From contig JAFGCJ010000002.1 of assembly GCA_016932785.1 (NCBI GenBank), forward strand, positions 209,777 through 273,776: a DNA stretch of 64,000 nucleotides, in the 5' to 3' direction. The notes beneath the pieces are model-generated. The model was not told the origin of the DNA and searched no databases. It was given only the letters and a program-made list of their open reading frames with translations. The DNA is from Candidatus Dojkabacteria bacterium (GTDB lineage Bacteria > Patescibacteriota > Dojkabacteria > SC72 > JAFGCJ01). Below are positions 251 to 53,191 of the stretch, piece by piece (position 1 is the first letter of the stretch; the number at the start of each line of letters is the position of its first letter). A program made the position numbers and the translations under genes.

Positions 251-3200
251 TCAACGATAATAAGCCACAGGCATATCCTCCGTGACATCTTCTACTCTTA
301 AACCAAATCTGTCCGCAGTATCCTTTGCTCTTCTTAACTTCTTACTCGTTCTCTTTCTTGTTCCTTTTTTTCCTCCACCATTTCCGCCATTGCCACCTCT
401 TCTCTGAACTCCCTGCAGCCATTCCCGCTCCATCTCTAATTCCATAGCTTCATCCGTTCTACCGAAATCCAAAGCACAAAGCATATCCAACCTTCTGTCT
501 ATAGTCCTTAAGTCAACAACGTCCATTGATAAACGCTCATTCTGTGAATTGCACAATATATCAATTAACAACGTATCATCCTTAGCTTTTCTAAAACTTT
601 TATCCCCTATTAAAGCAACTACAAATCTTCTTACTGGCGCTTTCCCATATTTCTTGTTTAATTCTCTTAATGGAAGGAAAAGAGGATGCATTTTGAGAGT
701 GTCAAGACCTGACTCCATCGTCCTACTTATTACCTCAGTTTGCTTGCCTTCTATCGCGTCCACCAGTTCTCCGACATTACGGGCAGATAAAATAGCAGCT
801 CTTACCGTATCATCTGACAAAAGAGAGACCAGAGAATCTTTCCACGCTGACAGTCTTTCTTCAAGCACTTCATCATCTATAACCTCGAGCTTTCTAGTTA
901 CTTTGCCAGATCCTCTAAGATCGTCTCGAACTTTTACTGCAGTAGAGATCATTTCCCTAAGATCTTCTCCTTCAATACCTGGTTTCCAGGCAGCAAGTTG
1001 AGCTTTGACACAATGGGAATCTACAGCTTCATCTAAATCTTTAATACTTTCCCCGGCTTGATGAACCAACTCAAACAATGAATCCTCGACTGTATCCGAA
1101 CTAAAATCTTCAGCAGGACTTGCACCGGTATTGATACTAAGATCTACTACCGTAAGTCCTTCATTAGAAAAACCACACAAGGTCATCCACGCAGAATTCG
1201 CTTTATCAAGCGCCGCAGACAACTCTTCACCAATGGATTGACGCAGCTCAGCTACTCCTACCTGACCCGAAACTATTCTGCCCTGAACCTCATTATTCAT
1301 TGAAAGTAAGACAGCCCCCAGGTCAGCGACATATCTCGGAGCCCAACCGGGAAACAGCGGGGAGAATGTATCTAGAACTTGCTGCTTCGCTTCCCCAACA
1401 AGGTTAGGAAAAGCCGAAATTCCAACACCATCAGAACCATGTAATAGATCTGTAACATCTCGTGCCAATGAAATTGCGGACGAAAAATCAGATAAACGAT
1501 CAGCAACTTCAGACAGCGCCGAAATCGCTCCCTCGAGTTTAGGAAGTCCAGCAGGAGATTGTTCTCGAATATAATCTCTAGTCTCAGGGATATAGCCAAA
1601 ATCAGTATTTGCGCCTCCCGCTCTTAGTACTTCTACTGGAAGATACCCATACCAATAATCCTCCCAGATACTCTGCTGAAGCTCGGTCTCTAGTCTTACG
1701 CCGCCAGCAAGATATTTACCCACCATTTCTCTCGCAAAATCACCGCGTTGGTGCGCAGTCTCTAAATTACTGCTAGACCAATCACTCGTATGTCTTACAA
1801 TAGAGACTAAAACACGCCTGTAGACATCACCTGCAATAGAAAGTATCTCATCATCACTGGCTTTCCTAGCCAAGACATTCTGAGAAATCGCAAGTACAGA
1901 ATCATAACTCGCAAACTCATCACGAACAGTTGAAAGAGGTACTATATTTCCATCTCCGCCAAAGAGAGCATGCATTACTTCATAGTGCAACTCACTCCGA
2001 GGAGCAAGATAGGGAATCAAAATATCATCGTCACAAAAATACATCATATCGATGTAGGCTTTAAGACCTGCAATCTTTTCCTCATCGATCTCATCAGGGA
2101 CCTCAATACCTACAACTCCACAAACATCAGTAAATAATTGTAAACATAGTTCCACTGGATAACCAGTCATTGCACTTCCTAATTCAAAAAATTTTTCCCT
2201 TGATACATCAGCCGCTTTAGCCGCTGGTCCGGCTTGCTGTACCAAATAATCATAAAACGTTCCTTTAAAAATTCTCGCTGCAGTGCTGTTTACCTCCTGA
2301 ACTCTCCACAACGCTTCATCTCGATCCATCGACTCAAGATCCAAAGGAATAATATCAGACATCAAAAGAGGATATGTGCCGTCAAACCGGAATTCCCGAT
2401 GTTCTTCGACTTGCTCTTTATATCCAATCGCAAACTTTGTGAGAAAATATCTCCGTAAAGCCTCAACCAGAAGCTTAGCAGTCTTACTATCCGTCTCGGG
2501 AAGCGGAGCCCAGGGATTCAGAAGATCTCTATCATACCTTACTTCACTCAAATTAAAGATTTCTCCAAAGAAATCCTCAGAGGAAAGTACTTCAGCCTTT
2601 CTTGAATCTTTTCTAATAGAAAAGGGCTCAGTTAGCCTTCCGGCTACATCAGTAACAATCTCTCGCAGCGCCGATGCGGGTCCAGCCCCAAACCATCTAT
2701 CCGGAATATCCCCATAAGACTGGACTTCGGCATCATATTCCTGAGACGACATAAATACATTCGGATCCAGCACATTATCTTCAATCATTAAATATAAGAT
2801 CTCTATTAGTCTTGTCCTGTCCTCCTCAGGCCAGTCAGCGTATGCGGTAAGATCATGAAGGAAAATAGATATTACTGCAGCCCTGGGATCACGAAGGCTT
2901 TCAGGCCATTCTTGGGAATCCGGAGTATCGTGACATTTATCAACCAACATTAATGCTTCTTCCAACGTTAGAGCTTCAGAATCGACATTCCACATTTCTT
3001 CGGCTAAGATTAAAACCAAGGATCTGAAAGAGGATACCTGCTCAAGTGAAGTATCAGTATCTCCGCCATAAAATTTTTTAATTGCAACATTTATCAAACC
3101 TCTAACAAGATCCTCATTAAGGTGCTCCAACAGAAAAGCCGCGTCAAGAGAAAGAGAAGCAGCCCTAATCATTTCCAGATCTGGCTCGCCTTGGAATAAA

Positions 3201-4054
3201 AGCTGCAACGCATTCCTTGCTACAGTTCCAATAATATCTGTATATTGGCCGAAACCCTGAGCTTCTTGAACAAAAAGCATTGCCTCATCAGCATCAGCAC
3301 ACATAGCCGCAAGCCAGAAAAATTTTAATGAAGTGACAGAGACCAGGCCTACATGAGTTCCTTTTTTGACGTCGGAAATGAGATCAAGATATCTGAACCT
3401 CTCCGGATTCTCAGCTCTGGCACTTTCCAATATTGATACCGACGGATATTGGAAAACCGGCTCAATTTCACCCATAACTAAACCCTGAAAAGCTTTAACA
3501 CGCTGGTATTTACTTGTTTCCCCATCCACATCACAAAGTCTATCGATCAATACCTCCGCCTCAGGATTTACTGCTACAAATTTACGTGCCTGACTATTAG
3601 ATAGTCCGCCGCCTCCATTCGAAGAGATACCCTTCAATTTTGCTATAAGGTCGTGTTCTCTCCAAGAAAGAACGTGAGTTCTTACTATCGACAAGTAAAA
3701 AGCTTTATCCTCACCGGAAAAGAGTCGCATCATTCCTGAAATGGACAGGTCCCGACCGTCCTCGACTAAATCTGGGCCCACTTCTAAAGCTGACTCAAGC
3801 TCTGTTCTTATAGCCAAAAGGAAACAACATTGAGGTTTTATCCTCTCATATTCATCGGCGGTACAGCCCTCTATAAAATCAGGGGTTTCAAGCCAGGCTT
3901 GAGCTTGCTCGAGCTTTTCTGCAATATACTCACATTGAGCATCGATAACCTCAGGACTTTCTTGATTTTCCGGATTAAGCAAAACCAGAGCTTCTGAAAC
4001 ATCCCGAACAGATGTTCCCAGCGCCTCTAATTCGCCTTCGCTTGCTTTAGCCAT
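251..4054 (-). CDS. large hypothetical protein (1267 aa), acidic, no obvious TM segment, basic Gly/Asn/Lys/Arg tail
   Basis: Uninterrupted 3.8-kb ORF. I recognise no family motif. The C-terminus reads GGNGGNGGGKKGTRKRTSKKLRRAKD. It is co-oriented with the two paralogous ORFs upstream. Confidence 0.7.
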   Translation of the reverse strand: MAKASEGELEALGTSVRDVSEALVLLNPENQESPEVIDAQCEYIAEKLEQAQAWLETPDFIEGCTADEYERIKPQCCFLLAIRTELESALEVGPDLVEDGRDLSISGMMRLFSGEDKAFYLSIVRTHVLSWREHDLIAKLKGISSNGGGGLSNSQARKFVAVNPEAEVLIDRLCDVDGETSKYQRVKAFQGLVMGEIEPVFQYPSVSILESARAENPERFRYLDLISDVKKGTHVGLVSVTSLKFFWLAAMCADADEAMLFVQEAQGFGQYTDIIGTVARNALQLLFQGEPDLEMIRAASLSLDAAFLLEHLNEDLVRGLINVAIKKFYGGDTDTSLEQVSSFRSLVLILAEEMWNVDSEALTLEEALMLVDKCHDTPDSQEWPESLRDPRAAVISIFLHDLTAYADWPEEDRTRLIEILYLMIEDNVLDPNVFMSSQEYDAEVQSYGDIPDRWFGAGPASALREIVTDVAGRLTEPFSIRKDSRKAEVLSSEDFFGEIFNLSEVRYDRDLLNPWAPLPETDSKTAKLLVEALRRYFLTKFAIGYKEQVEEHREFRFDGTYPLLMSDIIPLDLESMDRDEALWRVQEVNSTAARIFKGTFYDYLVQQAGPAAKAADVSREKFFELGSAMTGYPVELCLQLFTDVCGVVGIEVPDEIDEEKIAGLKAYIDMMYFCDDDILIPYLAPRSELHYEVMHALFGGDGNIVPLSTVRDEFASYDSVLAISQNVLARKASDDEILSIAGDVYRRVLVSIVRHTSDWSSSNLETAHQRGDFAREMVGKYLAGGVRLETELQQSIWEDYWYGYLPVEVLRAGGANTDFGYIPETRDYIREQSPAGLPKLEGAISALSEVADRLSDFSSAISLARDVTDLLHGSDGVGISAFPNLVGEAKQQVLDTFSPLFPGWAPRYVADLGAVLLSMNNEVQGRIVSGQVGVAELRQSIGEELSAALDKANSAWMTLCGFSNEGLTVVDLSINTGASPAEDFSSDTVEDSLFELVHQAGESIKDLDEAVDSHCVKAQLAAWKPGIEGEDLREMISTAVKVRDDLRGSGKVTRKLEVIDDEVLEERLSAWKDSLVSLLSDDTVRAAILSARNVGELVDAIEGKQTEVISRTMESGLDTLKMHPLFLPLRELNKKYGKAPVRRFVVALIGDKSFRKAKDDTLLIDILCNSQNERLSMDVVDLRTIDRRLDMLCALDFGRTDEAMELEMEREWLQGVQRRGGNGGNGGGKKGTRKRTSKKLRRAKDTADRFGLRVEDVTEDMPVAYYR

Positions 4055-4129
4055 AGATCACAATAATAGATTTACCTCTAGAAGCGTATTATACTATAGG
4101 TTGAGAATGTTGTGCCATAGGTGCCAATT

Positions 4130-4906
4130 CTAATTCCTCCCAGTATTAACAGCGATCTTCCTTGACCCATCAACCACTCTATAAAACCTGGTCAATCTTT
4201 TCCTCTGATCCTCATCAAAAACTCCATTTTGAATACCCCGCAAAACAGCATCAACAAAGGAATCACGCACTCGACCTCTATCTCTCCTAATCCAGGTAAT
4301 ACATGTCCCTAGAACTAAATCCAGAATTTCTTTTCTCGTACCCGGAGAAACCTCCTTAAGAAATTTCCCAGTCCTACCTTCAGAAAGAAACAGAATACTG
4401 TTCCTTGCTGCCAGAGTAAATCCTGAACCACTTATTACAAGAGCCTGCCTGGCAACGGAAGCAATTAGAGCAACAACATCTTCTTCATTTCTGAAAAGCC
4501 CTTTATCAAAAGACCCCATAGTCATAAGCAGCCACTGAGTTTTATGCATATTACCATACTCATCATCAGATCCTTCAAGCATGTTTAAAGCTACTACACA
4601 TGCGTAATTCTCAACCTGATCACGATACTTTTCCAGTCCTTCGGGGAAATCTCCCTGCATAAATCCAGCAAAAAAACCTCTAGCTGCAGCGGTTGTACTA
4701 TTATCATCCGGAATTACTGCTACTTTCGCGAGTGCATCTAGCACCCGGTCAGGATTAATTTCATTAATTTCATGAAGATTGCCAGCTTCCAATCCCTCCC
4801 TGACAACATGAACCATCTCGTATGCTCTCTCGTCCCTTCGAGCTATGCCTATCTCGATAGTCTCGGTTGCAAGGGTGTCCAATGTTAGTGATTGTTCTGC
4901 TGACAT
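4130..4906 (-). CDS. hypothetical protein (258 aa), paralog of the split ORF at 4946-5730
   Basis: It aligns by eye along its whole length with 5266-5730 plus 4946-5230. Examples: PDDNSTTAAARGFF vs DHNPTTKAARALF, and GTCITWIRRDRG...QRKRL vs ATCIYWINREDG...QRKRL. Confidence 0.7.
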   Translation of the reverse strand: MSAEQSLTLDTLATETIEIGIARRDERAYEMVHVVREGLEAGNLHEINEINPDRVLDALAKVAVIPDDNSTTAAARGFFAGFMQGDFPEGLEKYRDQVENYACVVALNMLEGSDDEYGNMHKTQWLLMTMGSFDKGLFRNEEDVVALIASVARQALVISGSGFTLAARNSILFLSEGRTGKFLKEVSPGTRKEILDLVLGTCITWIRRDRGRVRDSFVDAVLRGIQNGVFDEDQRKRLTRFYRVVDGSRKIAVNTGRN

Positions 4907-23624: not shown

Positions 23625-26198
23625 ATGAGTCTTATAAACCCAAAAAATGAAGTAAGAATATTTGTGGACGAGGATTTTACTGCCAACGACGTAAAAGAAG
23701 AATTGGTTGGCAGGAAAGGGTATTCCCTATTTCGGCTTAGAGATATGGATGTACCGGTCCCCTCGTTTATGTGTATATCATCAGGTCTTTTCTCAGAGTA
23801 CATCGCTTCATCTTTAGGATCGCTTACATCAAGCGCATCAATTTCAGAGATCAACAAAAAAATTCTCGAAGGCAACTTTCCCGATCCACTTAAAGAGGAG
23901 ATCCAAAGAGGTTACTCAAGGCTATCAGGTTTCACCGATTCCTGGGTTGCCGTACGGTCATCCATTGTTCCACCAATAAATCAAAAAGAACTGGCATTTT
24001 CAGGACTACTCGACACTGTACTCAACGTGAAGGGTGTTGATGATCTACTTGCTGCTATTAAAAAAGTATACGCAAGTGCATTTACAGAGAGAGTCGCCTC
24101 TTATCTAAGAGCAACAAATTCATCAATAGCTGAAATAAAGGTATCAATAGTCGTTCAAAAAATGATCCAAGCAGAAGCTTCAGGAATTGTTTTCACTATT
24201 GATCCTATTTCACAGAATAGTGAGTACCTAACTGTTGAGTCTGTATTTGGATTAGGCGATGTTATTGCAGCGGGTGAATTAACACCGGATCAGTACATAA
24301 TCAACAAAAAAACCCTAGACTTCAAAGAGAAGCGTATTGTTCCCCAGGAATGGATGATGGTCAGAAAGGTAAAACACAAAGATGGAGAAGGTGCCACACA
24401 AAAGGTCCGAATTTCCAAGGCTTGGCAACACCAACAAAAGCTGGATAACAGATACTTAGAGGAACTGGCAAAGATTTCGATGACAATAGAGCAGAAAGCC
24501 TCTGGTCCTCAGGATATAGAATGGGTTTTTGAAGGTGGCCGGCTATGGATTTTACAAACACAAGACGTCAAGCCCGTATCGATCGAGAAAACTGAACCCG
24601 ACCCTACCCTCAAGATCGACAAAGACATAATAGACTCTGCAAAAGCCATAGCAGAACGAGAACAATCAAAAAAGAAGATTATGGAAGAACTTGCCAAAGA
24701 GAGAGAAGAGCATCCATCAAAAGAAACAATAAAACCAAAAGAAAATCATAAGAACGAGGAAGAGGTATTTGCGGCAAAGCCATTCAACAGACAGGTTGTC
24801 CAAGCCCCAAGAAAGGAAAAATCTAAGGTTGAAAGAAGAGAAATTCAAAATATTCCACCTCACAAAGGAGAACGGCTGGTACTTACCGGAATTGGTGCAA
24901 GCAATGGATCATATAGGGGCGAAGCCGTCATTATCCAGAACGCAGACGAAATTAAAGAGAATGAACCACGCCTCAAGAAAGACTTCGTTTTAGTATTTCC
25001 AGATTTCTTTCCGGAGCTGGAAAAATACATTACTAAGGCCGGGGCTATTGTTTCCGACCAGGGTGGAATTACAAGCGATATAGCTATCAGGTGTCGCGAG
25101 CAAGGAATTCCCTGCATAATGGGAAGCCACATTGCTAGTCATATGATCAAACAGGGAGAACCTATTCTTATCGATGGAAATGTTGGTGCCGTTTATGGTG
25201 TAAGAGAAGTCGCCCCTCCAAGTAAGAGTGAAGATCTGCCACAATCTCAAAATGAGAAGCCTCAAGACATAGAGATTAAAGCCGAACCTGCAGAGGTTAA
25301 GGCCCAAGAACAAGAGCCAGAACCTGTCACCGCAAAAATACGGACCGCTACAAAAGTATTTATAGACCTATCAGACTCCTATCTCAAGGGAGAGAAATGG
25401 GAAGAAATGATACCGGAATCTGACGGTGTAGCAACAATTCAGGTCGAGGACATCTATAAAAAGTTCAAGCGACACCCCGAAGCCTACATCGAAGAAGGAA
25501 AATCCAAAGAACTTATAGATAATATAGCTAATGAGCTTTCAGCGGTATGCGAACGCTCAGAAGGAAACACTGTCATCGCAACAATCGGCAGCATGACCGT
25601 CGACGAGTATCAAAAACTTGTCAAAGGATCATCTTACGAAAAATGGACAGACGAAAGCGGTATAAAAGATCACTCAGCTGGACTTCCCCGCCTCTTACAA
25701 AGACCAAAAGAATTGGATCTATTTTTTAAAGCTATAAGGACTGTTAGAAATAAGCACGGCTGGAGAAACATCTCCATTGGCGTTAACTTTCCTACGACAA
25801 CAAAGAACTTCATCGAATTCAAGAAGCTTCTCAGCGCAGCAAAACTCAGAAGATCCTCAACATTCAAAGTATTTCATGTAATCGACACCCCCTCTGAGGC
25901 TATGACGTCCGAAGAGTTCGTTGAGATAGGCATAGATGGAGCAGTAATCAATGTAAACAGCCTAGCCAAACTAATGATGGCACCAGCTCTAGATGACGAG
26001 AGTGTTTTAAAGATTATAGACAAAATATCACAGAGCTGGAGAGGATCCACAGTGATAATTCAAACCTCCAAAGATTCAGAGAAATTGATCGAACGCGCTG
26101 TTAGAGTTGGTTCCTACGGTCTTGCTGTACAACCAAATGAACTCACAGAAGCCAGACTGTCAGTCTCACAAACAGAAGCCAAAATTGCCTTATCATAG
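23625..26198 (+). CDS. PEP synthase / pyruvate phosphate dikinase-like protein with a degenerate swivel and C-terminal domain
   Basis: Nucleotide-binding N-domain blocks: VAVRSS, VVQKMIQAEASGIVFT, DIEWVF..LWILQTQ. The swivel block GGITSDIAIRCREQGIPC stands where GGxTSHAAIxARExGIP is expected. The C-terminal part resembles the PEP-utilising TIM barrel only weakly. Confidence 0.75.
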   Translation: MSLINPKNEVRIFVDEDFTANDVKEELVGRKGYSLFRLRDMDVPVPSFMCISSGLFSEYIASSLGSLTSSASISEINKKILEGNFPDPLKEEIQRGYSRLSGFTDSWVAVRSSIVPPINQKELAFSGLLDTVLNVKGVDDLLAAIKKVYASAFTERVASYLRATNSSIAEIKVSIVVQKMIQAEASGIVFTIDPISQNSEYLTVESVFGLGDVIAAGELTPDQYIINKKTLDFKEKRIVPQEWMMVRKVKHKDGEGATQKVRISKAWQHQQKLDNRYLEELAKISMTIEQKASGPQDIEWVFEGGRLWILQTQDVKPVSIEKTEPDPTLKIDKDIIDSAKAIAEREQSKKKIMEELAKEREEHPSKETIKPKENHKNEEEVFAAKPFNRQVVQAPRKEKSKVERREIQNIPPHKGERLVLTGIGASNGSYRGEAVIIQNADEIKENEPRLKKDFVLVFPDFFPELEKYITKAGAIVSDQGGITSDIAIRCREQGIPCIMGSHIASHMIKQGEPILIDGNVGAVYGVREVAPPSKSEDLPQSQNEKPQDIEIKAEPAEVKAQEQEPEPVTAKIRTATKVFIDLSDSYLKGEKWEEMIPESDGVATIQVEDIYKKFKRHPEAYIEEGKSKELIDNIANELSAVCERSEGNTVIATIGSMTVDEYQKLVKGSSYEKWTDESGIKDHSAGLPRLLQRPKELDLFFKAIRTVRNKHGWRNISIGVNFPTTTKNFIEFKKLLSAAKLRRSSTFKVFHVIDTPSEAMTSEEFVEIGIDGAVINVNSLAKLMMAPALDDESVLKIIDKISQSWRGSTVIIQTSKDSEKLIERAVRVGSYGLAVQPNELTEARLSVSQTEAKIALS

Positions 26199-26273: not shown

Positions 26274-28910
26274 ATGACCAACAAAATGACGCCTATGATG
26301 CGTCAGTACAACAATCTTAAACAACAGTACAAGGATAAAATACTTCTTTTTCGCATGGGAGATTTTTATGAGACCTTTGGAGAAGATGCAAAGATTACAG
26401 CCAAGGTCCTTAATATTGCTTTAACAACGAGAGATAAGAATGATGACCCTACTCCTCTTGCCGGATTTCCTCATCATGCAATAGATCAATATCTTCATAA
26501 ATTTGTTCAGGCAGGGTATAAGGTCGCAATAGCGGATCAAGTTGAAGACCCAAGTCAAGCCAAAGGCATCGTCAGACGGGAAGTAATAAGAGTTGTAACG
26601 CCCGGTACGGTAACAGAAGACAAATCACTCGACGAAAATCAGAATAATTTTCTTGCCTCCGTATATTTTTCCAACAAAGTATACGGCATAGCCCTCTGCG
26701 ACCTTTCAACGGGAGAATTTCGGGTTACAGAGACAAAGGATAGATCAAGAATGAGAGATGAGATTGCAAGAATTAATCCCTCGGAGATCCTCATCGCTCC
26801 TCATTCCGATTTTTCAGACCTCTCAGATTATTCCATCCAACCCATTGAAGACTATAGTTTCGACGAAAAAGATGCCAAGGAAATTCTAACCAACCACTAC
26901 AACATAAAAAGTCTTGCCTCATTTGGAATAAATAATTACAAATCTGCTATTGCTGCAGCAGGGGCCATTATCTTTTATCTCGAAGAAACTCAGAAGACAG
27001 AAGTTTCTCACCTTCAGACTATTCAATACTACGACTTAAACGGAAATATGATTTTAGATTCGGCCACCATCAGGAACCTCGACCTTCTATATTCTGAAGG
27101 GGAACATGGAAAAAAGAGTACCTTAATATCCGTTATTGACAGAACGAAAACATCCCACGGCGGAAGGGTTCTTAGACAATGGATTCTACACCCGTTGATA
27201 AACGCAATAGAAATATCTGACCGACTCAATCTAGTTGATACATTATTTCAAAACCCTTCTCTGTTAACTAACGTTCAAGAAATACTTCGAAATATTTCTG
27301 ATCTTGAAAGACTGTGCGGAAAACTCGGCCTTAACAGAGCAAACGGAAGAGACCTAAACGGAATATCTGAATCGATAGAGCACTGTTTTGAGCTTCAAAA
27401 AGCTCTGAAAGACGAACAGACATTTACCTCATTACTAAAAGAATTTACAAAATCCAGACATAGAATAATCGAAATGAAAAAGCTCATCGATAATTCAATT
27501 GTGAAGAACCCTCCTATAACAATAACTGAAGGTAACATAATAAAAGAAGGATATAGTAAAGAAGTAGATGACATAAGAAGCAAATCAGGAGGCAGCAGAA
27601 AATGGATATCAGAACTCGAAAACAAGGAACGAGAGAGAACGGGTATACCATCTCTTAAAGTCAAATCAAACAAAGTCTTCGGCTACTATATTGAGGTCAC
27701 AAATACTCACAAAGATAAAATCCCCGAAGACTATATTCGAAAACAAACTCTTGTGAACTGCGAAAGATATATAACCCCCGAACTAAAAGAAAAAGAAGAA
27801 ATTGTTTTCAACGCCCAGGAAAAACTCGCGGAATTAGAATACGAGTGCTTTCAAGAGATTAGAACCAAAGTTCTTAAAGAGATTGATACTATTCAGAGAA
27901 TTTCCCAAATCATAGCGCAAATTGATGCAATATCATCCTTAGCTGAGTCCGCGAGAGTCAATGACTACAGCAGGCCAGAAATTTTTGATCTTGGCGAAAA
28001 AGATGGCTTAATCGATATCAAGAATGCCAGACATCCAATAGTTGAAAAGACAATCGACGAGGAATTTATAAGCAATGATATTACAATGGATTCAAAGGAG
28101 AATCGTCTACTAATTCTAACCGGTCCAAATATGTCTGGAAAATCCACATACATACGTCAGACTGCGCTCATTCTTCTAATGGCTCAGATAGGAAGTTTTA
28201 TACCGGCAAGTTCAGCACGAATTTCAATTACCGACAGAATTTTCACAAGAGTCGGTGCGTCTGACGATCTCTCTGCTGGAAGAAGCACCTTCCTGGTAGA
28301 AATGGACGAGGCGGCAAATATAATCAACAACGCCACTCATAATAGCTTCATTGTACTAGACGAGATTGGACGAGGAACAAGCACCTATGACGGTGTATCA
28401 ATAGCCTGGGCAATTGCCGAATATATCCACAACAGTGTTAGAGCAAGATGTGTATTTGCTACACACTACCACGAGCTTCTTAAACTCGAATCAGAACTAG
28501 ACGGAGTAAAAAACTACAACATTGCCGTACTAGAAAAAGACGACAATATTACATTCCTAAGGAAAATTGAGAAAGGCGGAACAGATAAGAGTTACGGAAT
28601 TTACGTTGCCAAAATGGCCGGACTTCCAGATTCATTGATCCAGAGAGCCAAAGAAATCCTTAACGGCTTTGAACAAGAAAACATGTTCGGAGTAAGAAGT
28701 GAACCCGTAAGAAAAAGTAAAAAAGAAAAGGTCACTGAACAGCAACCGATTGAAGATGATCACCAAGACCAGCTAAACTTTATGGACAGCTCAAACTCAA
28801 TTCCAAATCTTTTTAGTGATCTGGAAGATATTGATATCAACCACATTACCCCGGTTGAAGCACTTAGACTTCTTGAGAAATGGAAACGGAGACTTACTCG
28901 TCAGTCTTAA
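26274..28910 (+). CDS. mutS: DNA mismatch repair protein MutS
   Basis: N-terminal MMRQY..KQQY..LLFRMGDFYE, Walker A TGPNMSGKST and DEIGRGTSTYDG. Confidence 0.95.
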   Translation: MTNKMTPMMRQYNNLKQQYKDKILLFRMGDFYETFGEDAKITAKVLNIALTTRDKNDDPTPLAGFPHHAIDQYLHKFVQAGYKVAIADQVEDPSQAKGIVRREVIRVVTPGTVTEDKSLDENQNNFLASVYFSNKVYGIALCDLSTGEFRVTETKDRSRMRDEIARINPSEILIAPHSDFSDLSDYSIQPIEDYSFDEKDAKEILTNHYNIKSLASFGINNYKSAIAAAGAIIFYLEETQKTEVSHLQTIQYYDLNGNMILDSATIRNLDLLYSEGEHGKKSTLISVIDRTKTSHGGRVLRQWILHPLINAIEISDRLNLVDTLFQNPSLLTNVQEILRNISDLERLCGKLGLNRANGRDLNGISESIEHCFELQKALKDEQTFTSLLKEFTKSRHRIIEMKKLIDNSIVKNPPITITEGNIIKEGYSKEVDDIRSKSGGSRKWISELENKERERTGIPSLKVKSNKVFGYYIEVTNTHKDKIPEDYIRKQTLVNCERYITPELKEKEEIVFNAQEKLAELEYECFQEIRTKVLKEIDTIQRISQIIAQIDAISSLAESARVNDYSRPEIFDLGEKDGLIDIKNARHPIVEKTIDEEFISNDITMDSKENRLLILTGPNMSGKSTYIRQTALILLMAQIGSFIPASSARISITDRIFTRVGASDDLSAGRSTFLVEMDEAANIINNATHNSFIVLDEIGRGTSTYDGVSIAWAIAEYIHNSVRARCVFATHYHELLKLESELDGVKNYNIAVLEKDDNITFLRKIEKGGTDKSYGIYVAKMAGLPDSLIQRAKEILNGFEQENMFGVRSEPVRKSKKEKVTEQQPIEDDHQDQLNFMDSSNSIPNLFSDLEDIDINHITPVEALRLLEKWKRRLTRQS

Positions 28911-30699
28911 TCTGATCTTTTACATCCTCCAACGCAATAAGACTTTGAGAACCTTTTTTCATATCCTTCAACTGAACTTTGTTCTCCTTCAGCTCATCCG
29001 GTCCCACAACTACTACCCAAGGTATACCGGTCTTATTCGCATATCCAAACTGGCTTTTTAATGAAGTTACATCAGGGTAAAGCATGGCTGAGATATTCTG
29101 TTTCCTAAGATAATCAGCAATCCTCAGAGAGTCCTTCCATAAATTTTTATCAAAAATAGTCACCAAGACTTCAGCCTCGGGTTTACTGAAGTCTTTCATC
29201 TTTCTATCTCGCATTATGTCGCAAATTCTCTCAATACCAAACGAACCCCCTGTTGCAGGAATATCACGCCCGATATATCGGCTGATCGCTTCATCATATC
29301 GTCCACATCCAGCTATTGATCCGACATTTCCATCAATAATTTCGAATTCCCAGACAGGTCCGGTATAAGAAGCCAACCCACGTGCAAGAGATGGATCGAA
29401 TTCATATTTGCTTTCATCTATATCTACGGCCTCAAGATAATCTGCTATCTGGAGAATCTCATTTAGACCTTCATTTCCGATCTTAGAATCTCCTACAGCC
29501 TTTCTCATTTCTTCGATTGTCTCCCTGTAACTCTTGTTCTTGTACCTTTCAATATTTGTTATATCAAGGGTTTCTTCAGCCACATCCCTACTAATTCCAC
29601 GAACCTCTACCATTTCGTCAATAACTTCTTTTGCTCCAATCTTCTGTAACTTATCCAGAGAGACACAAAATCCATAGAATTTGTTCTTATCGACACCAAT
29701 AGAATCAGCCAAGCCTTCAAGAAATTTCCGGTTACTTATTCTCACTTTGTACTCCTTAAATCCTAAACGGTTAACAACGTCGAGCCCCATTTGCATGTGT
29801 TCAGCATCACAGATCATTGACGAACTTCCAACAGTATCCGCATCACACTGAGTAAATTCTCTGTACCGCCCTCGCTGGGTATTTTCGGCCCTCCATGTTC
29901 GCTGTATCTGGTATCTCTTATAAGGAAGCTTGATATCGCCAAGATTTTGGGCCACAGCTCGGCACATAGAGATCATAACTTCAAACTTAAGCATAACATC
30001 ACGGTCACCAGGATCTTTAAACATATAGAACTGCTTTTCCGCCTCTTCACCGCTTTGTCCCAACATCAGATCAGCATATTCGACAGCAGGCGTTTCAAGA
30101 GGTTCATAGCCATACCTTTCAAAGACATCCTCAAAAGTTCCAATTACAAACTTCCGAAGCCTCATATCAGGACCAAAGAAATCTTGAAAGCCCTTAAGTA
30201 ATCTAGGTTTTTTAACTTTTGTCTTGTTATTTTTCTCCATAGCATTTTTTGGCATTAATTCAGCTGTAATCTGAAATGTGTTCTTGCCCTTTTTCTCAAA
30301 TTTTATAATACTAAAAGTCCCATATTCTGCAATTTCCCTTGTATTCTCAACATGTGGACCAATGCAAGCCTGTGTATTCACATCCCCAATAATGGTAAGA
30401 GTTATCTCATTTGCGCTTTCAGGCACAAGCGAGATATCTATTTTCCTTCTTTTGGCTTCCTCCCTATCTATCTTAACAAATTCTACAGGTATATTTCTAG
30501 CGGTAATAGCATTTACCTTATCCTCAATATATTCCTTCGTCATATAGCTAGGCATTTTTTCAACTTTGAAAGGAAATCTCACTTTATCATCAGAAATTTT
30601 CAATCCATATATAGAAATCCTTCCACAGTTCTTTTCAAGAATACCTGAAAGTATATGATCACAGGTATGCAATCTTTTAAAAGTGCTGTCTTTAGACAT
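28894..30699 (-). CDS. hisS: histidine--tRNA ligase with an N-terminal AlaX-like (tRNA_SAD) domain
   Basis: HisRS blocks WRAENTQRGRYREFTQCDAD and GCGRYD, plus a C-terminal anticodon-binding domain. The N-terminal ~165 aa carry HTCDH and CIGPH, the HxxxH and CxxxH zinc motifs of AlaX/editing domains. I chose the ATG at 30699. The GTG at 30813 lies inside predicted RNA helices. Confidence 0.85.
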   Translation of the reverse strand: MSKDSTFKRLHTCDHILSGILEKNCGRISIYGLKISDDKVRFPFKVEKMPSYMTKEYIEDKVNAITARNIPVEFVKIDREEAKRRKIDISLVPESANEITLTIIGDVNTQACIGPHVENTREIAEYGTFSIIKFEKKGKNTFQITAELMPKNAMEKNNKTKVKKPRLLKGFQDFFGPDMRLRKFVIGTFEDVFERYGYEPLETPAVEYADLMLGQSGEEAEKQFYMFKDPGDRDVMLKFEVMISMCRAVAQNLGDIKLPYKRYQIQRTWRAENTQRGRYREFTQCDADTVGSSSMICDAEHMQMGLDVVNRLGFKEYKVRISNRKFLEGLADSIGVDKNKFYGFCVSLDKLQKIGAKEVIDEMVEVRGISRDVAEETLDITNIERYKNKSYRETIEEMRKAVGDSKIGNEGLNEILQIADYLEAVDIDESKYEFDPSLARGLASYTGPVWEFEIIDGNVGSIAGCGRYDEAISRYIGRDIPATGGSFGIERICDIMRDRKMKDFSKPEAEVLVTIFDKNLWKDSLRIADYLRKQNISAMLYPDVTSLKSQFGYANKTGIPWVVVVGPDELKENKVQLKDMKKGSQSLIALEDVKDQIKTDE

Positions 30700-31041
30700 T
30701 TTTGTGTTGTGCTTTAATTTATTTCCGAAATACTCTAAAATCGGGTTAAGCTCGCAGCCGGTACATTCGAGTAGATAAGGAAAAAATACGTAAGTAGTTT
30801 TTCTATTTCTCACTTAAGCGGCTGCGAGCTTCGTTATTGTAGAGGTGGGAACCCCCGAAGGGGCTCCCTTTTTCTTTGTGAGCAAGGCTCCGATTAGGTA
30901 TGATCGCCGATACGGAACATTCTCAACACCTCCCCTCAATATATTTTGGGCTTCTCAAAGTTACAGTGAGAGCCACTTAATGGAAACACGATTTTGCATC
31001 CACTAAGGGACTCTCATCCTCCAAACTTGATCAAAGAGCCA
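30700..31041 (-). ncRNA. candidate structured leader or ncRNA between tRNA-His and hisS (identity unknown)
   Basis: Three helices stand out. One is a 16-position hairpin at 30968-31015. One is a 9-bp helix capped by UUCG at 30847-30868. One is a 13-bp perfect long-range inverted repeat, 30748-30760 with 30819-31831 read as 30819-30831. In the first two, the non-Watson-Crick positions are G-U on the minus strand but A-C on the plus strand. Confidence 0.35.
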
Positions 31042-31118
31042 TGGGGTGGAAGGTGGGAGTTGAACCCACAACAACCTGTACCACAAACAGGCGCTCTGCC
31101 AATTAAGCTACTTCCACC
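31042..31118 (-). tRNA. tRNA-His (anticodon GTG), with encoded G-1, C73 and CCA
   Basis: Manual cloverleaf: G-1 then GTGGAAG/CTTCCAC acceptor, anticodon arm CCTGT-TTGTGGT-ACAGG, T arm GTGGG-TTCAACT-CCCAC, and a C-CCA end. Confidence 0.9.
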
Positions 31119-31355
31119 ACATCGCTGCAGAAAACAGCTGTCTTCAACCAACAGGCCTACGCTCCTGCAACGCGATTCTTCACAATTTCTACTATTTATT
31201 TTTCTTTGCTTGGATAGGTTTTTTAACTGATCCAACATCTGCTCTATAAAGTCAAAATGCTTTTAGCAGCCGATCTAGCTGACCACAATAAATTGCAGTC
31301 GCCTATACAAGCAAAAAGGCCATGTTACTGACCTATGAAATCTTATTAAAATGGG

Positions 31356-31393
31356 AATAAAATCGTCACAGACCAGCAAAATAGCGGTTGTGA
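31356..31393 (-). terminator. terminator-like hairpin with U-tract overlapping the end of a mini-ORF
   Basis: On the minus strand UCACAACCGC pairs with GC(U)GGU(C)UGUGA. That gives 10 bp with two 1-nt bulges and a 6-nt loop, followed by CGAUUUUAUU. Confidence 0.35.
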
Positions 31394-31437
31394 CTGTGAT
31401 GGGCCTTAACTTTCATACTTTCCATTTTTCCTTTCAT
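31366..31437 (-). CDS. 23-codon mini-ORF MKGKMESMKVKAHHSHNRYFAGL (possible leader peptide)
   Basis: It starts about 3 nt after the predicted TSS. An internal ATG is preceded by AGGA. Three His codons lie at 31390-31401. Too short for the ORF track. Very uncertain. Confidence 0.25.
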   Translation of the reverse strand: MKGKMESMKVKAHHSHNRYFAGL

Positions 31438-31446
31438 AACAGCTAT

Positions 31447-31475
31447 ATTATACCATTTTAGGCCATTTTTGTCAA
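31447..31475 (-). promoter_or_regulatory. consensus sigma70-type promoter (TTGACA-17 nt-TATAAT with TGG immediately upstream of -10)
   Basis: The minus strand reads TTGACAaaaatggcctaaaatggTATAAT. It lies 10 nt after the stop of the upstream gene and about 320 nt upstream of tRNA-His. Confidence 0.6.
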
Positions 31476-31484
31476 AAAAGAATG

Positions 31485-32522
31485 CTAGAGACTTCTCTTA
31501 GTAGCCTCCGCTGCGCAAGCTAAGGCTCTTTCCATATCTGTCACGACACTTGGATGATTCAGTGCGAAAAGATACGTCTGTCTTAAACCAAGTTTCTCTC
31601 CTCTGGGGCTAATAACACCCTGCCTCATCAAGACACGAAGATCTTCCAATAAATCCGTATAAGATAGATGACCGGGCATCTTTCCAGCGCACAGATCACG
31701 ACCAGGTTCTTGATTCTTAATACCACTATAAATACCCAACGCAGGAATTGTTCTCCTATTTCTCATCAGTCCCAAAATAAGCGGCTGTAATATTCTTGGG
31801 GCAGTGGATGTATAGAGCATTTCCACGGTCCTATCAGATTCTATTCTTAGTTGATTAAAGAGAAACTCCCCTACTCCAGTCATAACATAGGTCTCAGTAG
31901 TAATTCCTCTTTCACGTAAAAGCCATAATAGGGTATCCATATTGCGTTGAGGATCTCCGTATTTTTGTCTTTCATTTATTTTCGCCTTTCTATATGCCTC
32001 AAGTGCGATGAAATAATCCCAGATAGTAGACGGACACCTCGGATTTATCTGGTTAAATGCGCGACTGAGACTAATTGGAATTTCTGAATCAAAACCTAAT
32101 CCTGCCAGCCGGATATTATATCTCTCCGTCTTACGAAAAATATTTTCTACCACTCGACGCGTTTCTTCCACGTTTGCAGCGTTAGTCCAATAACCAAGGT
32201 TATCTGGTAAAACGACCCATCCAATGACAGGAACATTGGATTCATTAAGTATTCGAATTGCAGCAGCAGTATCCTCATCGATATCGGATAGCGCAAGGGA
32301 TATTCCATTCCCTCCATTTGCAAGATGGTCTACAAGCCTAGGAGAAAACTCCTCACTTGTCATAGGCTGAGTAATGAGACTTGTCAGCATTTTTCCACGT
32401 TGATCAGGCCGTACAATCTCAACAGGAAGTTCTACATAATAAACCACATTGACACCTGGAGGGCTTTCTTTTTCGTGTTCGGCTACTCCAACCATTTGTT
32501 CTGGACTACAATTTTCCCCCAT
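31485..32522 (-). CDS. hypothetical protein (345 aa)
   Basis: Long ORF with no recognised motif. Confidence 0.55.
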   Translation of the reverse strand: MGENCSPEQMVGVAEHEKESPPGVNVVYYVELPVEIVRPDQRGKMLTSLITQPMTSEEFSPRLVDHLANGGNGISLALSDIDEDTAAAIRILNESNVPVIGWVVLPDNLGYWTNAANVEETRRVVENIFRKTERYNIRLAGLGFDSEIPISLSRAFNQINPRCPSTIWDYFIALEAYRKAKINERQKYGDPQRNMDTLLWLLRERGITTETYVMTGVGEFLFNQLRIESDRTVEMLYTSTAPRILQPLILGLMRNRRTIPALGIYSGIKNQEPGRDLCAGKMPGHLSYTDLLEDLRVLMRQGVISPRGEKLGLRQTYLFALNHPSVVTDMERALACAAEATKRSL

Positions 32523-51649: not shown

Positions 51650-51727
51650 GGTGGATGTAGCTCAATTGGTTAGAGCGCCTGTTTGTGGCACAGGAGGTTG
51701 AGGGTTCGAGTCCCTTCTTCCACCCCA
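51650..51727 (+). tRNA. tRNA-His (anticodon GTG), second divergent copy, with G-1, C73 and CCA encoded
   Basis: Manual fold: G-1 then GTGGATG/CTTCCAC acceptor (a U6-U67 mismatch), anticodon arm CCTGT-TTGTGGC-ACAGG, T arm GAGGG-TTCGAGT-CCCTT. Confidence 0.8.
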
Positions 51728-53191
51728 GTTTTCATTTTCGATAGCAGATTCCACAGAAACCATATGAGACCAAGGTTCTTTGAAGTTCCAACCAACTTCT
51801 TTATCGTCTAGCGTTAAACCTTCGCTTATAGACATCACTATTTTCCTCTTCTCTTCAAGAGTGCCGTTACTAAAGACTTCCTGTAGACCGAAGCATTGTT
51901 CGTAAAAAAGTTCCAACGACTCACGCACATCGTCTCTGTTGTACTTCACATCACCTCTGAGTTCTTCGAGTTCACTGACTCTCTTGTTTAATATTTCTTT
52001 CTGGTCCAGATACTCATCTTTTGTCAGCTCGCCCTCAATTCTCATACTCAGAATTTTGTCTAGTTTTTGTAGGGTATCAGATAGTTGATTTTCTATCTCC
52101 TCACGCCGATCACATTCCTGTGAAAAATCGACCTCAAGCTGTTTTCTAGTCTTTTCCTTTAGAATCTCCAGATACTTTTTTGAAAGTGAAATCTTAGAAA
52201 TATGCCCAACAAACTGATCTTCCAAATCTTCTGCTCTAATTGGTTTGTTGTCACACTTACCTCTTCGCTTCGTGCAACAGTAATATGTATAGGGCTTGTC
52301 GTTCTTATATTTTGTATATGCAGTTATTGCACAACCACACCTTGGACACTTCATTATTCCTTTGAAAGGATGGTAATGCCTGCTTTGATATGGCTTAGAG
52401 TCGTCGTCCAGGACTTCTTGTAATTCAAGCCACTTCTGTTTTGTAATTAGCGGCTCCCATTTACCTTTATCGCTTTCATCATTTACATCTTCAAAATAGC
52501 CACAGTATGACGGTTTTCGTAGGAGTCTATGTAATTCTGATTTAACGAAATGCTTCCCTCGGCGGGTCTTTACGTCCCATTCATACAACAGATTTACAGC
52601 TTGAACAAGGTTTAATCTATTCGAAATAATCTCATCAACAAGACGGACATAGAACTTAGAGGTTTTGGGATTTGGAGCTATGTTCTTCTTCCCTTTCTCT
52701 GTTCCCATATTTATGTAAAACGCTGGAGCATAAGAGCACCATTCCCCTCGTTTTCTCTTCTCTCTGAGTCCCCTTTTGGTATTAATACTAAGCTCTCTTG
52801 AGTATTGAGCATTTGAACCAAATTCGACTCCTAAAAGGATATCGTTGGCGTTCTCGTTGGTAATGCTTCTATATCGGGTACGAATTTCAAGAAGTTTCCC
52901 GTCAGTTAGCAACTGCATAATAATGCCTGACTCTTGCGGATTGCGGCTTAGACGGTTTGTATGCCAGATTAGAACCCTTTTACAATGCCCCTTCTTGATA
53001 TTCTCGATCAATTCATTGAAACCATCACGTTGTCCTGGCTTTCTAGCAGACTTCGATTCCTTGATGATTCTGGCTATTTTGAGGCTGTTCTCAGCGGCAT
53101 ATTCCTTTAACTCCCTCTCCTGAGCCGGTAAGGACAGTGCCTGCTTCTCTGAACTTTCACTAGATTTTCGACAATAACAAAAATACTCCAT
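51662..53191 (-). CDS. large serine recombinase (integrase-type)
   Basis: N-terminal resolvase block YCRKSSESSEKQALSLPAQ and VLIWHTNRLSRN. There is also a recombinase domain, a zinc ribbon CPRCG...CCTKRRGKC and a coiled coil. The last ~22 codons are antisense to tRNA-His. Confidence 0.9.
   Translation of the reverse strand: MEYFCYCRKSSESSEKQALSLPAQERELKEYAAENSLKIARIIKESKSARKPGQRDGFNELIENIKKGHCKRVLIWHTNRLSRNPQESGIIMQLLTDGKLLEIRTRYRSITNENANDILLGVEFGSNAQYSRELSINTKRGLREKRKRGEWCSYAPAFYINMGTEKGKKNIAPNPKTSKFYVRLVDEIISNRLNLVQAVNLLYEWDVKTRRGKHFVKSELHRLLRKPSYCGYFEDVNDESDKGKWEPLITKQKWLELQEVLDDDSKPYQSRHYHPFKGIMKCPRCGCAITAYTKYKNDKPYTYYCCTKRRGKCDNKPIRAEDLEDQFVGHISKISLSKKYLEILKEKTRKQLEVDFSQECDRREEIENQLSDTLQKLDKILSMRIEGELTKDEYLDQKEILNKRVSELEELRGDVKYNRDDVRESLELFYEQCFGLQEVFSNGTLEEKRKIVMSISEGLTLDDKEVGWNFKEPWSHMVSVESAIENENWGGRRDSNPQPPVPQTGALTN

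Follow-up and report, generated by a model that had tools for sequence, protein, structure and literature searches.

The 64-kilobase (kb) stretch of DNA analyzed here, hereafter the window, comes from Candidatus Dojkabacteria, a member of the candidate phyla radiation (CPR, or Patescibacteria). On its minus strand, a short open reading frame (ORF) with clustered histidine codons and three overlapping hairpins precede the genes for tRNA-His and histidyl-tRNA synthetase (HisRS, encoded by hisS). This element is very probably a His-specific, ribosome-mediated (leader-peptide) transcription attenuator placed ahead of the two genes. All parts of the leader lie on the minus strand, where the order is an ORF of 345 amino acids (aa), a promoter, the mini-ORF, the three hairpins, tRNA-His, a spacer of 342 nucleotides (nt) and hisS. 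An earlier interpretation made from the letters of the region (the sequence-only reading) had proposed an attenuator sensing His-tRNA charging; conservation in relatives, the logic of the switch, covariation and a His-specific enrichment now support that proposal.

A promoter-proximal ORF with clustered His codons

The leader ORF (31366-31437, minus strand) comprises 23 codons followed by UGA and encodes MKGKMESMKVKAHHSHNRYFAGL. Codons 13, 14 and 16, within the sequence CAU CAC (AGU) CAC at 31390-31401, specify His, which gives three His in four codons. The ORF is short and promoter-proximal, and its clustered codons are cognate to the genes that follow, as expected of a leader ORF. For comparison we used the contigs of the closest HisRS relatives, which share only 45-66% identity with the window HisRS, together with 80 species-representative loci, and counted enrichment over 89 loci. 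His-run mini-ORFs, defined as carrying at least three His in four codons on the hisS strand, at a distance of up to 400 nt before hisS or tRNA-His, are present in 21 of the 89, against 1.1-1.5 expected from their density elsewhere (p ~1e-18). Expressed as enrichment, His reaches 13.8-fold, and none of the other amino acids goes beyond 2-fold. The loci from this screen, together with further instances spotted by eye, make up the family of 24 leaders considered below. The clustered His codons, 2 to 5 in number, are the single peptide feature kept across the family.

The promoter consists of a -35 hexamer, TTGACA (31470-31475), and an extended -10 element, TGGTATAAT (TGnTATAAT, 31447-31455, with TGG at 31455-31453 and TATAAT at 31452-31447), separated by a 17-nt spacer between TTGACA and TATAAT. 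It is the sole 12/12 match on either strand of the 64 kb, where shuffled sequences predict 0.01. The ATG of the leader ORF lies 9 nt past the -10 element, and the intervening segment (31438-31446) contains the discriminator and the predicted transcription start, a G at about 31440. The leader mRNA is thus predicted to be near-leaderless, with some 3 nt of 5' untranslated region (UTR). The seventh position past the -10 element is a G in the window and likewise in the relatives L002, L104, L106 and L107; in the window subfamily this is the G at the predicted +1, 3 nt ahead of the AUG. The sequence-only reading had pointed out the perfect promoter with its TGG, the 23-codon ORF about 3 nt past the predicted start and the His codons (CAT CAC .. 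CAC in the DNA), all of which hold. It had also placed the promoter 10 nt after the stop codon of the preceding gene; the gap is short, as stated, and amounts to 9 nt when counted from the stop (TAG, 31487-31485) of the 345-aa ORF to the -35 hexamer. This upstream ORF has no Pfam match.

The same arrangement is found throughout the family. In 22 of 23 members a -10 hexamer (at least 4/6 matches) precedes the leader ATG by 6-12 nt, and in 21 by 6-9 nt; 14 of these 22 elements are perfect TATAAT sequences, and in 18 the TG characteristic of an extended -10 is present. An identical perfect promoter with TGG is present in L002, and TTGACA recurs in L104 and L007. No Shine-Dalgarno-like sequence was found among the 23 leaders checked. 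The leaders of the family would accordingly have 5' UTRs of 0-3 nt and presumably undergo leaderless initiation.

Three overlapping hairpins

Alternative folding, a check that the sequence-only reading had recommended, revealed three overlapping hairpins instead of the one it had described. Hairpin 1:2 (31365-31394, GUCACAACCGC/GCUGGUCUGUGAC; -12.5 kcal/mol, z = -3.4, 1/200 shuffles as good) is a presumptive anti-antiterminator and probable pause hairpin. Its 5' arm overlaps the His16 codon, its 3' arm includes the UGA stop, and it is followed by the U-rich sequence GAUUUUAUU. Helix 2:3, the antiterminator (31327-31377, GCUGGUCUGUGACGAUUUUAUU / AAUAAGAUUUCAUAGGUCAGU), comprises 21 base pairs (bp) and has a stability of -16.9 kcal/mol (z = -4.4, 0/200 shuffles). 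Helix 3:4 is a predicted intrinsic terminator (31307-31334; AGGUCA-guaaca-UGGCCU then UUUUGCUUGU; -6.8 kcal/mol, z = -2.9), also reported by a terminator scan; its stem, 31334-31317, lies about 31 nt past the stop codon. Region 2 is common to 1:2 and 2:3, and region 3 to 2:3 and 3:4, which is the classical topology of an attenuator. The hairpin at 31394-31365 that the sequence-only reading had described as terminator-like is real, but it corresponds to helix 1:2 rather than to a terminator. The terminator itself falls outside the segment, 31356-31475, that the reading covered, and the 21-bp helix at 31377-31327 supplies the antiterminator that it had failed to find.

Conservation of the helices was assessed in an alignment of six sequences (A5); an eight-sequence version that included L106 and L107 misaligned the terminators. 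In A5, 88.9% of cells are paired over the 21 bp of the antiterminator, as compared to 41-50% in controls with a slid partner. Five pairs have changed on both sides in compensatory fashion, and none of 500 shuffles reaches the covariation score. The antiterminator is the best-supported helix of the element. For hairpin 1:2, 74% of cells are paired (six relatives) versus 27-50% with a slid partner. The terminator is 75% paired in A5, its registers varying among sequences. Terminators with other stem sequences and stabilities of -4 to -17 kcal/mol occupy the equivalent place in relatives and are present in all 24 members examined: each locus has a separate canonical hairpin and U-tract, 23-60 nt past the stop codon, whose 5' arm is the antiterminator partner. 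In L106, translation stops directly past the His codons and the nucleotides of region 2 are nonetheless kept, untranslated. This indicates that the FAGL tail of the peptide is conserved as RNA and that only the His codons are conserved as codons.

Effects of ribosome position on leader folding

Initial modelling of terminator probability at equilibrium, with the ribosome footprint masked, let the local terminator outcompete the long-range antiterminator, and in several loci the automatic terminator finder chose the 1:2 hairpin. This model was replaced by a co-transcriptional fold in which the RNA of each of the 24 leaders was folded only up to the terminator loop, the ribosome masking the A-site codon and a further 13 nt. 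When the ribosome is placed at the first His codon, the 5' arm of the terminator is at least 67% paired in 24/24 leaders, and the partner segment surrounds the stop codon (region 2). When it is placed at the stop codon instead, pairing of this arm reaches 60% in just two of the 24. In the window, the arm is 100% paired when the ribosome is stalled (-19.3 kcal/mol, versus -0.5 kcal/mol with the ribosome at the stop codon). When the upstream segment was shuffled, no more than 2.5% of shuffles sequestered the terminator arm equally well in any of the 24 leaders, and 0/200 did so in the window.

These features suggest the following mechanism. Transcription would begin about 3 nt before the AUG, and a ribosome would load on the near-leaderless 23-codon ORF. 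Hairpin 1:2 and its U-rich tail probably hold RNA polymerase in a pause while the ribosome catches up. With an ample supply of His-tRNA(His), the ribosome would reach the UGA in region 2 and mask this region, leaving region 3 to pair with region 4; the terminator (31334-31317) would then form, releasing about 130 nt of leader RNA. Under a shortage of His-tRNA(His), the ribosome would stall at CAU CAC AGU CAC and mask region 1. Region 2, now free, would pair with region 3 in the 21-bp antiterminator, so that the terminator is blocked and transcription reads through into tRNA-His and, most likely, hisS. The net outcome would be a negative feedback on the supply of charged tRNA-His.

Conservation in related genomes

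The sequence-only reading had noted that relatives keeping the promoter and lacking the ORF or the hairpin would speak against an attenuator; in the relatives, promoter, His-codon mini-ORF and hairpins are all conserved. L002, whose HisRS is 57% identical to that of the window, has the same perfect promoter, an HHH-containing ORF ending in NHHHNQSFAGLW, matching 1:2 and 2:3 helices and a terminator (GCCAGC-gaaa-GCUGGC then U5) about 230 nt upstream of tRNA-His. The module is also present in L104 (leader ending in IHHNCQIFVGL), L107 (ending in LHHHHSHVFAGL), L106 (leader MRTDGSYNQVHHHHSH), L013 (ending in YHHHHYNQSVSGLR), L007 (ending in VHHHKSVLAGSW) and L072 (ending in SLHHHDPQIIAGL); overall, it persists in relatives with as little as 45-60% HisRS identity. 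More distant Microgenomates (labelled Shapiro-, Roizman-, Woesebacteria etc.) have leaders of unrelated appearance and the same design directly upstream of tRNA-His/hisS, for example MKGSFFHHHSLLLA, MKSVVVIINHHHTTK, MNTLMSTHHHHHQ and MKINVLTCSHHHPAFGGR. In six loci (L018, L025, L026, L028, L030 and L036) the tRNA gene is absent and the leader stands directly ahead of hisS. As judged from these comparisons, the same putative device recurs in at least 24 related CPR genomes.

A covariance model (R1) built from five relatives, with the window sequence left out, has a single match in the window, at 31308-31404 on the minus strand (56.7 bits, E = 2e-9). It also retrieves L107, L106, L010 and L006 and, weakly, several of the distant leaders, and it led to further leaders, with HH only, in L001 and L022. 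A metagenome scan with a degenerate region-2 pattern, CTGGTYYGYGRYGATTKTATT, gave 18 matches, all in unrelated DNA with none of the surrounding leader features, and no new relatives. When the window was scanned for other small ORFs (sORFs) with a -10 element and a terminator, the TG, a perfect -10 and a codon run occurred together only in the His leader; the other matches look like chance.

The gene neighbourhood was compared as well. In the window, hisS stands with a convergent mutS and a pyruvate-phosphate-dikinase-like gene (26274-28910 and 23625-26198, both plus strand). The arrangement is kept in L002, L102, L104, L106 and L107, indicating that these are orthologous neighbourhoods.

Probable target genes

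The gene for tRNA-His (GUG anticodon, with encoded G-1 and CCA; 31042-31118, minus strand) begins 248 nt past the leader stop codon, in agreement with the approximately 240 nt, with hisS farther downstream, given by the sequence-only reading. It is separated from the terminator by a poorly conserved spacer of 188 nt (31119-31306, minus strand). No promoter-like site was predicted between terminator and tRNA in the window or in L002, and no conserved structure emerged when the spacer was aligned and consensus-folded with those of L002, L007 and L013. In L003, L006 and L104, only 0-10 nt lie between the terminator U-tract and the start of tRNA-His, too few to accommodate a promoter for the tRNA alone. 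A second spacer, the 342 nt between tRNA-His and hisS (30700-31041, minus strand), is highly structured, with a minimum free energy of -115.4 kcal/mol (z = -7.07; shuffles, -84 +/- 4.4 kcal/mol). Its minus strand contains neither a predicted promoter nor a predicted terminator. Beyond it lies hisS (28894-30699, minus strand), which encodes a 601-aa protein with the Pfam domains tRNA_SAD, tRNA-synt_His and HGTP_anticodon, 100% identical to a Candidatus Dojkabacteria HisRS. The lack of predicted promoters in both intervals and of a predicted terminator in the second, together with the spacing in L003, L006 and L104, suggests that the regulated unit is most likely tRNA-His plus hisS; tRNA-His is better supported as a regulated gene than hisS. 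The 345-aa ORF and a 384-aa ORF upstream were considered as part of the unit and rejected, since they are not homologous to the CntK-like genes of the relatives and lie upstream of the promoter.

Several observations concern these genes and spacers. Within the 342-nt spacer are a GGGAGCCCC-UUCG-GGGGUUCCC hairpin and a long-range helix of 13 bp; the spacer matches no Rfam family, and nothing similar was found in any related locus. Sequences resembling the 5' end of tRNA-His (GGTGGATGTAGC, GGTGGTCATGAAG) lie between the terminator and the intact tRNA-His in L106 (1690-1780) and L013 (1700-1750), and insertion or duplication at this end of the tRNA may account for the long spacers. The N-terminal ~150 aa of the window HisRS (30205-30699, minus strand) resemble free-standing AlaX-S trans-editing proteins (Pfam tRNA_SAD), matching Protein Data Bank entries 1v7o/1wnu over nearly full length (E = 4e-7). 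This AlaX-like-HisRS fusion occurs in only a few relatives (P0002, P0003, P0012, P0068); most HisRS of the clade lack the domain. The window also contains a second tRNA-His(GUG) gene (51651-51727, plus strand), 85% identical to the attenuated copy. This second gene lacks a His leader, is preceded by a separate extended -10 promoter and abuts the gene for a large serine recombinase (51662-53191, minus strand; Resolvase, Recombinase, Zn_ribbon_recom) beside a stretch of lower GC content (0.36-0.37) at 52-60 kb of the window, which suggests an integrative element situated at, or carrying, the second tRNA-His gene.

Alternative interpretations

A number of points weigh against the attenuator interpretation. 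The window leader has just three His codons, which are not consecutive, and L104 and L001 have only two. The window terminator is weak: its stem has 6 bp including a G-U pair, its loop 6 nt and its U-tract is interrupted, and at -6.8 kcal/mol it falls short of most relatives' terminators (-9 to -17 kcal/mol). The covariation rests on six sequences; in the shuffle test helices 1:2 and 3:4 are individually non-significant, and the stability of the whole leader is unexceptional (z = -1.6 to -1.8). The equilibrium fold of the full leader prefers the antiterminator even when no ribosome is present, which implies that the switch must be kinetic. The 188-nt gap and the 342-nt structured spacer ahead of hisS could harbour a non-consensus promoter. 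Finally, leaderless translation and intrinsic termination in this lineage are predictions only, and the support for all members of the family is solely comparative or thermodynamic.

Other explanations fare less well. One is a two-state version of attenuation, in which termination occurs at the hairpin that overlaps the ORF (31394-31365) and carries the CGAUUUUAUU tail, unless a ribosome stalled on the His codons blocks the 5' arm of this hairpin. The hairpin is stable (see above), and a U-rich stretch follows it in the window, L002, L107, L007, L072, L024 and L036, where the finder chose this hairpin. However, this tail is interrupted, and its conservation is explained by pairing, since it forms the 5' half of the antiterminator (alignment columns 47-55 with 69-77). 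Moreover, with the stop codon located in the 3' arm, a ribosome that does not stall would also melt the hairpin, leaving no His-dependent switch, and every one of the 24 loci has a separate hairpin and U-tract farther downstream. The two-state version is, in our view, very unlikely; hairpin 1:2 may act as a pause site, or may terminate transcription when the leader is untranslated. Slightly less likely still is a toggle worked by something other than a ribosome, such as uncharged tRNA-His (in T-box-like fashion), HisRS or another RNA-binding protein, the ORF being incidental. Such a toggle would accord with the T-box regulation of hisS in Firmicutes (PMC2965389) and with a downstream operon that encodes a tRNA and an RNA-binding enzyme. 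It sits poorly with the conservation, across very divergent leaders, of in-frame His codons behind an ATG 6-12 nt past the -10, with the His-specificity of the enrichment and with a stop codon found consistently where a terminating ribosome would mask region 2. Nor was a T-box or any other Rfam family detected, even at E up to 10.

The mini-ORF and hairpins might also be chance features in the 5' leader of a pre-tRNA transcribed from a strong constitutive promoter. Near-consensus promoters are frequent at tRNA genes, the folding of the whole leader is unremarkable and the His codons number only three. This explanation becomes extremely improbable in view of the maintenance of the module in relatives with HisRS 45-60% identical, the enrichment, the covariation of the antiterminator, the match to the covariance model and the loci in which the device directly precedes hisS with no tRNA gene. 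Lastly, either the ~130-nt RNA left by termination or the leader peptide of 23 aa could be the functional product and act in trans, instead of, or besides, attenuation in cis; rnTrpL and peTrpL of Sinorhizobium provide precedents for such trans functions (PMC6614838, PMC7298713). But the peptide is not conserved apart from the His run, its C-terminal part being untranslated in L106; no target can be proposed, and the strict linkage to tRNA-His/hisS would be left unexplained. A role in trans is accordingly very improbable, and ribosome-mediated attenuation in cis remains the favored interpretation.

Other leaders and associated genes

The survey of relatives brought to light variants of the arrangement. 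The Dojkabacteria relative L107 has, at 1925-2085, a TTGACA-17-TATAAT promoter followed after 10 nt by an ORF, MITTNSFNSLFGLLLLS, with four consecutive Leu codons. Behind it come an antiterminator, CGGGAGG/CCUCCCG, a terminator made up of CCUCCC-gagu-GGAGG and a run of U, and then a leucyl-tRNA synthetase gene (2110-4539). The layout matches that of the His leader, with Leu as the amino acid. From this case, attenuation may be a general means of synthetase control in the lineage. In L072 (1675-2034) and L031 (20-331), HHH codons and attenuator hairpins occur not in a mini-ORF but at the 3' end of ORFs of the Trp_repressor family (PF01371, E = 1e-23 to 1e-25), which are full-length at 119 and 103 aa, respectively. 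In these two cases, a full protein carries the sensing "leader peptide" as its C-terminal tail.

A second conserved His leader, with the sequence ..HHTHTVV.., is found in Shapirobacteria-type loci (L005:3917-4045, L006:3735-3860, L008:150-285 and L010:3807-3925). It has its own promoter, antiterminator and terminator (AUCCCCCGC..GGGGGAU plus U7) and lies upstream of hisS in all four loci, directly past tRNA-His in L008 and L010. The Shapirobacteria-type loci would thus have a pair of His attenuators arranged in series. The second leader is followed in L010 by a CntK-like gene. Mutually homologous proteins of 250-280 aa are encoded behind His leaders in L001 (2598-3437), L011 (3475-4221), L023 (5190-5990) and L024 (5141-5968); the L001 member has a weak CntK_N (histidine racemase-like) match. 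Elsewhere, His leaders precede genes for a DAO-type FAD oxidoreductase (L035:4594-5877), a class I/II aminotransferase (L031:3504-4625) and an AstE/AspA-like deacylase with a GNAT (L020:4563-6004). The genes behind His leaders may form a histidine-salvage regulon.

Significance and comparison with known systems

Most CPR bacteria have not been cultivated, and they rely on hosts for their amino acids; gene regulation in them was described as virtually unknown in a 2024 review (PMC11665869). The putative attenuator offers a concrete, testable regulatory mechanism in these organisms and hints, indirectly, at transcription-translation coupling, leaderless initiation and intrinsic termination. His leaders could also help annotation, as the genes behind them (CntK-like, DAO, aminotransferase, deacylase) probably function in histidine acquisition. 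An arrangement with a tRNA gene immediately downstream of the terminator of a leader peptide, of which we found no earlier description, would constitute a simple homeostat for one charged tRNA. Taken together, the observations allow a wider proposal, which we advance tentatively and hold to be slightly less than an even bet. Leaderless leader-peptide attenuation might be a lineage-wide control of aminoacyl-tRNA supply in CPR of the Microgenomates/Dojkabacteria type, in place of the T-boxes of Firmicutes; it might gate a tRNA gene directly by its own charging level (to our knowledge the first such instance), define a histidine-salvage regulon (CntK/DapF-like racemase-like protein, DAO oxidoreductase, aminotransferase) and extend to other synthetases, as in the Leu-run leader before leuS of L107. 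No paper was found that connects CPR/Patescibacteria, or a tRNA gene, with leader-peptide attenuation, in a search whose coverage was short on subscription journals, and the CPR His attenuator is probably novel.

The hisL leader of Escherichia coli and Salmonella has an ORF with clustered His codons, alternative 1:2, 2:3 and 3:4 hairpins and a terminator, and it allows read-through when His-tRNA(His) is limiting. The present element resembles it in its clustered His codons, its three alternative hairpins and its intrinsic terminator. It differs in that hisL has seven consecutive His codons, is led by a Shine-Dalgarno sequence and controls the his biosynthesis operon, whereas the leaders described here have 2-5 His codons, appear near-leaderless and precede tRNA-His and hisS; furthermore, hisL belongs to Proteobacteria, and the CPR element shares no sequence or structure similarity with it. 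In E. coli, pheM-pheST provides an example of a leader-peptide attenuator that controls the cognate aminoacyl-tRNA synthetase. As in pheM-pheST, the target here would be a cognate synthetase and not a biosynthetic operon; unlike that proteobacterial system, which senses Phe through a Shine-Dalgarno-dependent leader and involves no tRNA gene, the present one would sense His and includes a tRNA gene.

Searches of Rfam at gathering and relaxed thresholds (E up to 10, positions 30600-31560) returned only tRNAs and noise: the element matches neither His_leader (RF00514) nor the T-box (RF00230), and no small RNA family was found. The Firmicutes hisS T-box has a comparable output, inducing hisS in response to uncharged tRNA-His by means of an antiterminator that competes with a terminator; however, T-box leader RNA binds the tRNA directly, whereas the sensor here would be a ribosome. 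Naville and Gautheret (2010, PMC2965389) predicted a His leader peptide in Bacillus, ahead of hisZ and a paralog of hisS, and argue that such leaders arise by convergence. That prediction, purely computational like ours, also involves a short ORF with a His stretch and a premature terminator before a hisS-family gene. It concerns Firmicutes and the paralog hisS* with hisZ and, unlike our case, involves no tRNA gene; similarity between it and the CPR family is not to be expected. Polycysteine leaderless sORF attenuators in mycobacteria (bioRxiv 10.1101/834739) and actinobacterial leader peptides (PMC1262725) are, as far as their abstract-level descriptions go, similar in having an ORF at or near the 5' end of the transcript whose clustered codons report amino acid availability; on the same level of description they differ in phylum, amino acid and target genes, theirs serving biosynthesis. 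What is probably new in the present system is the CPR lineage, the leaderless nature predicted for its leader ORFs and the position of a tRNA gene directly behind the terminator. The mechanism itself is a textbook one, and the advance lies in its scope and in the variant, not in the principle.

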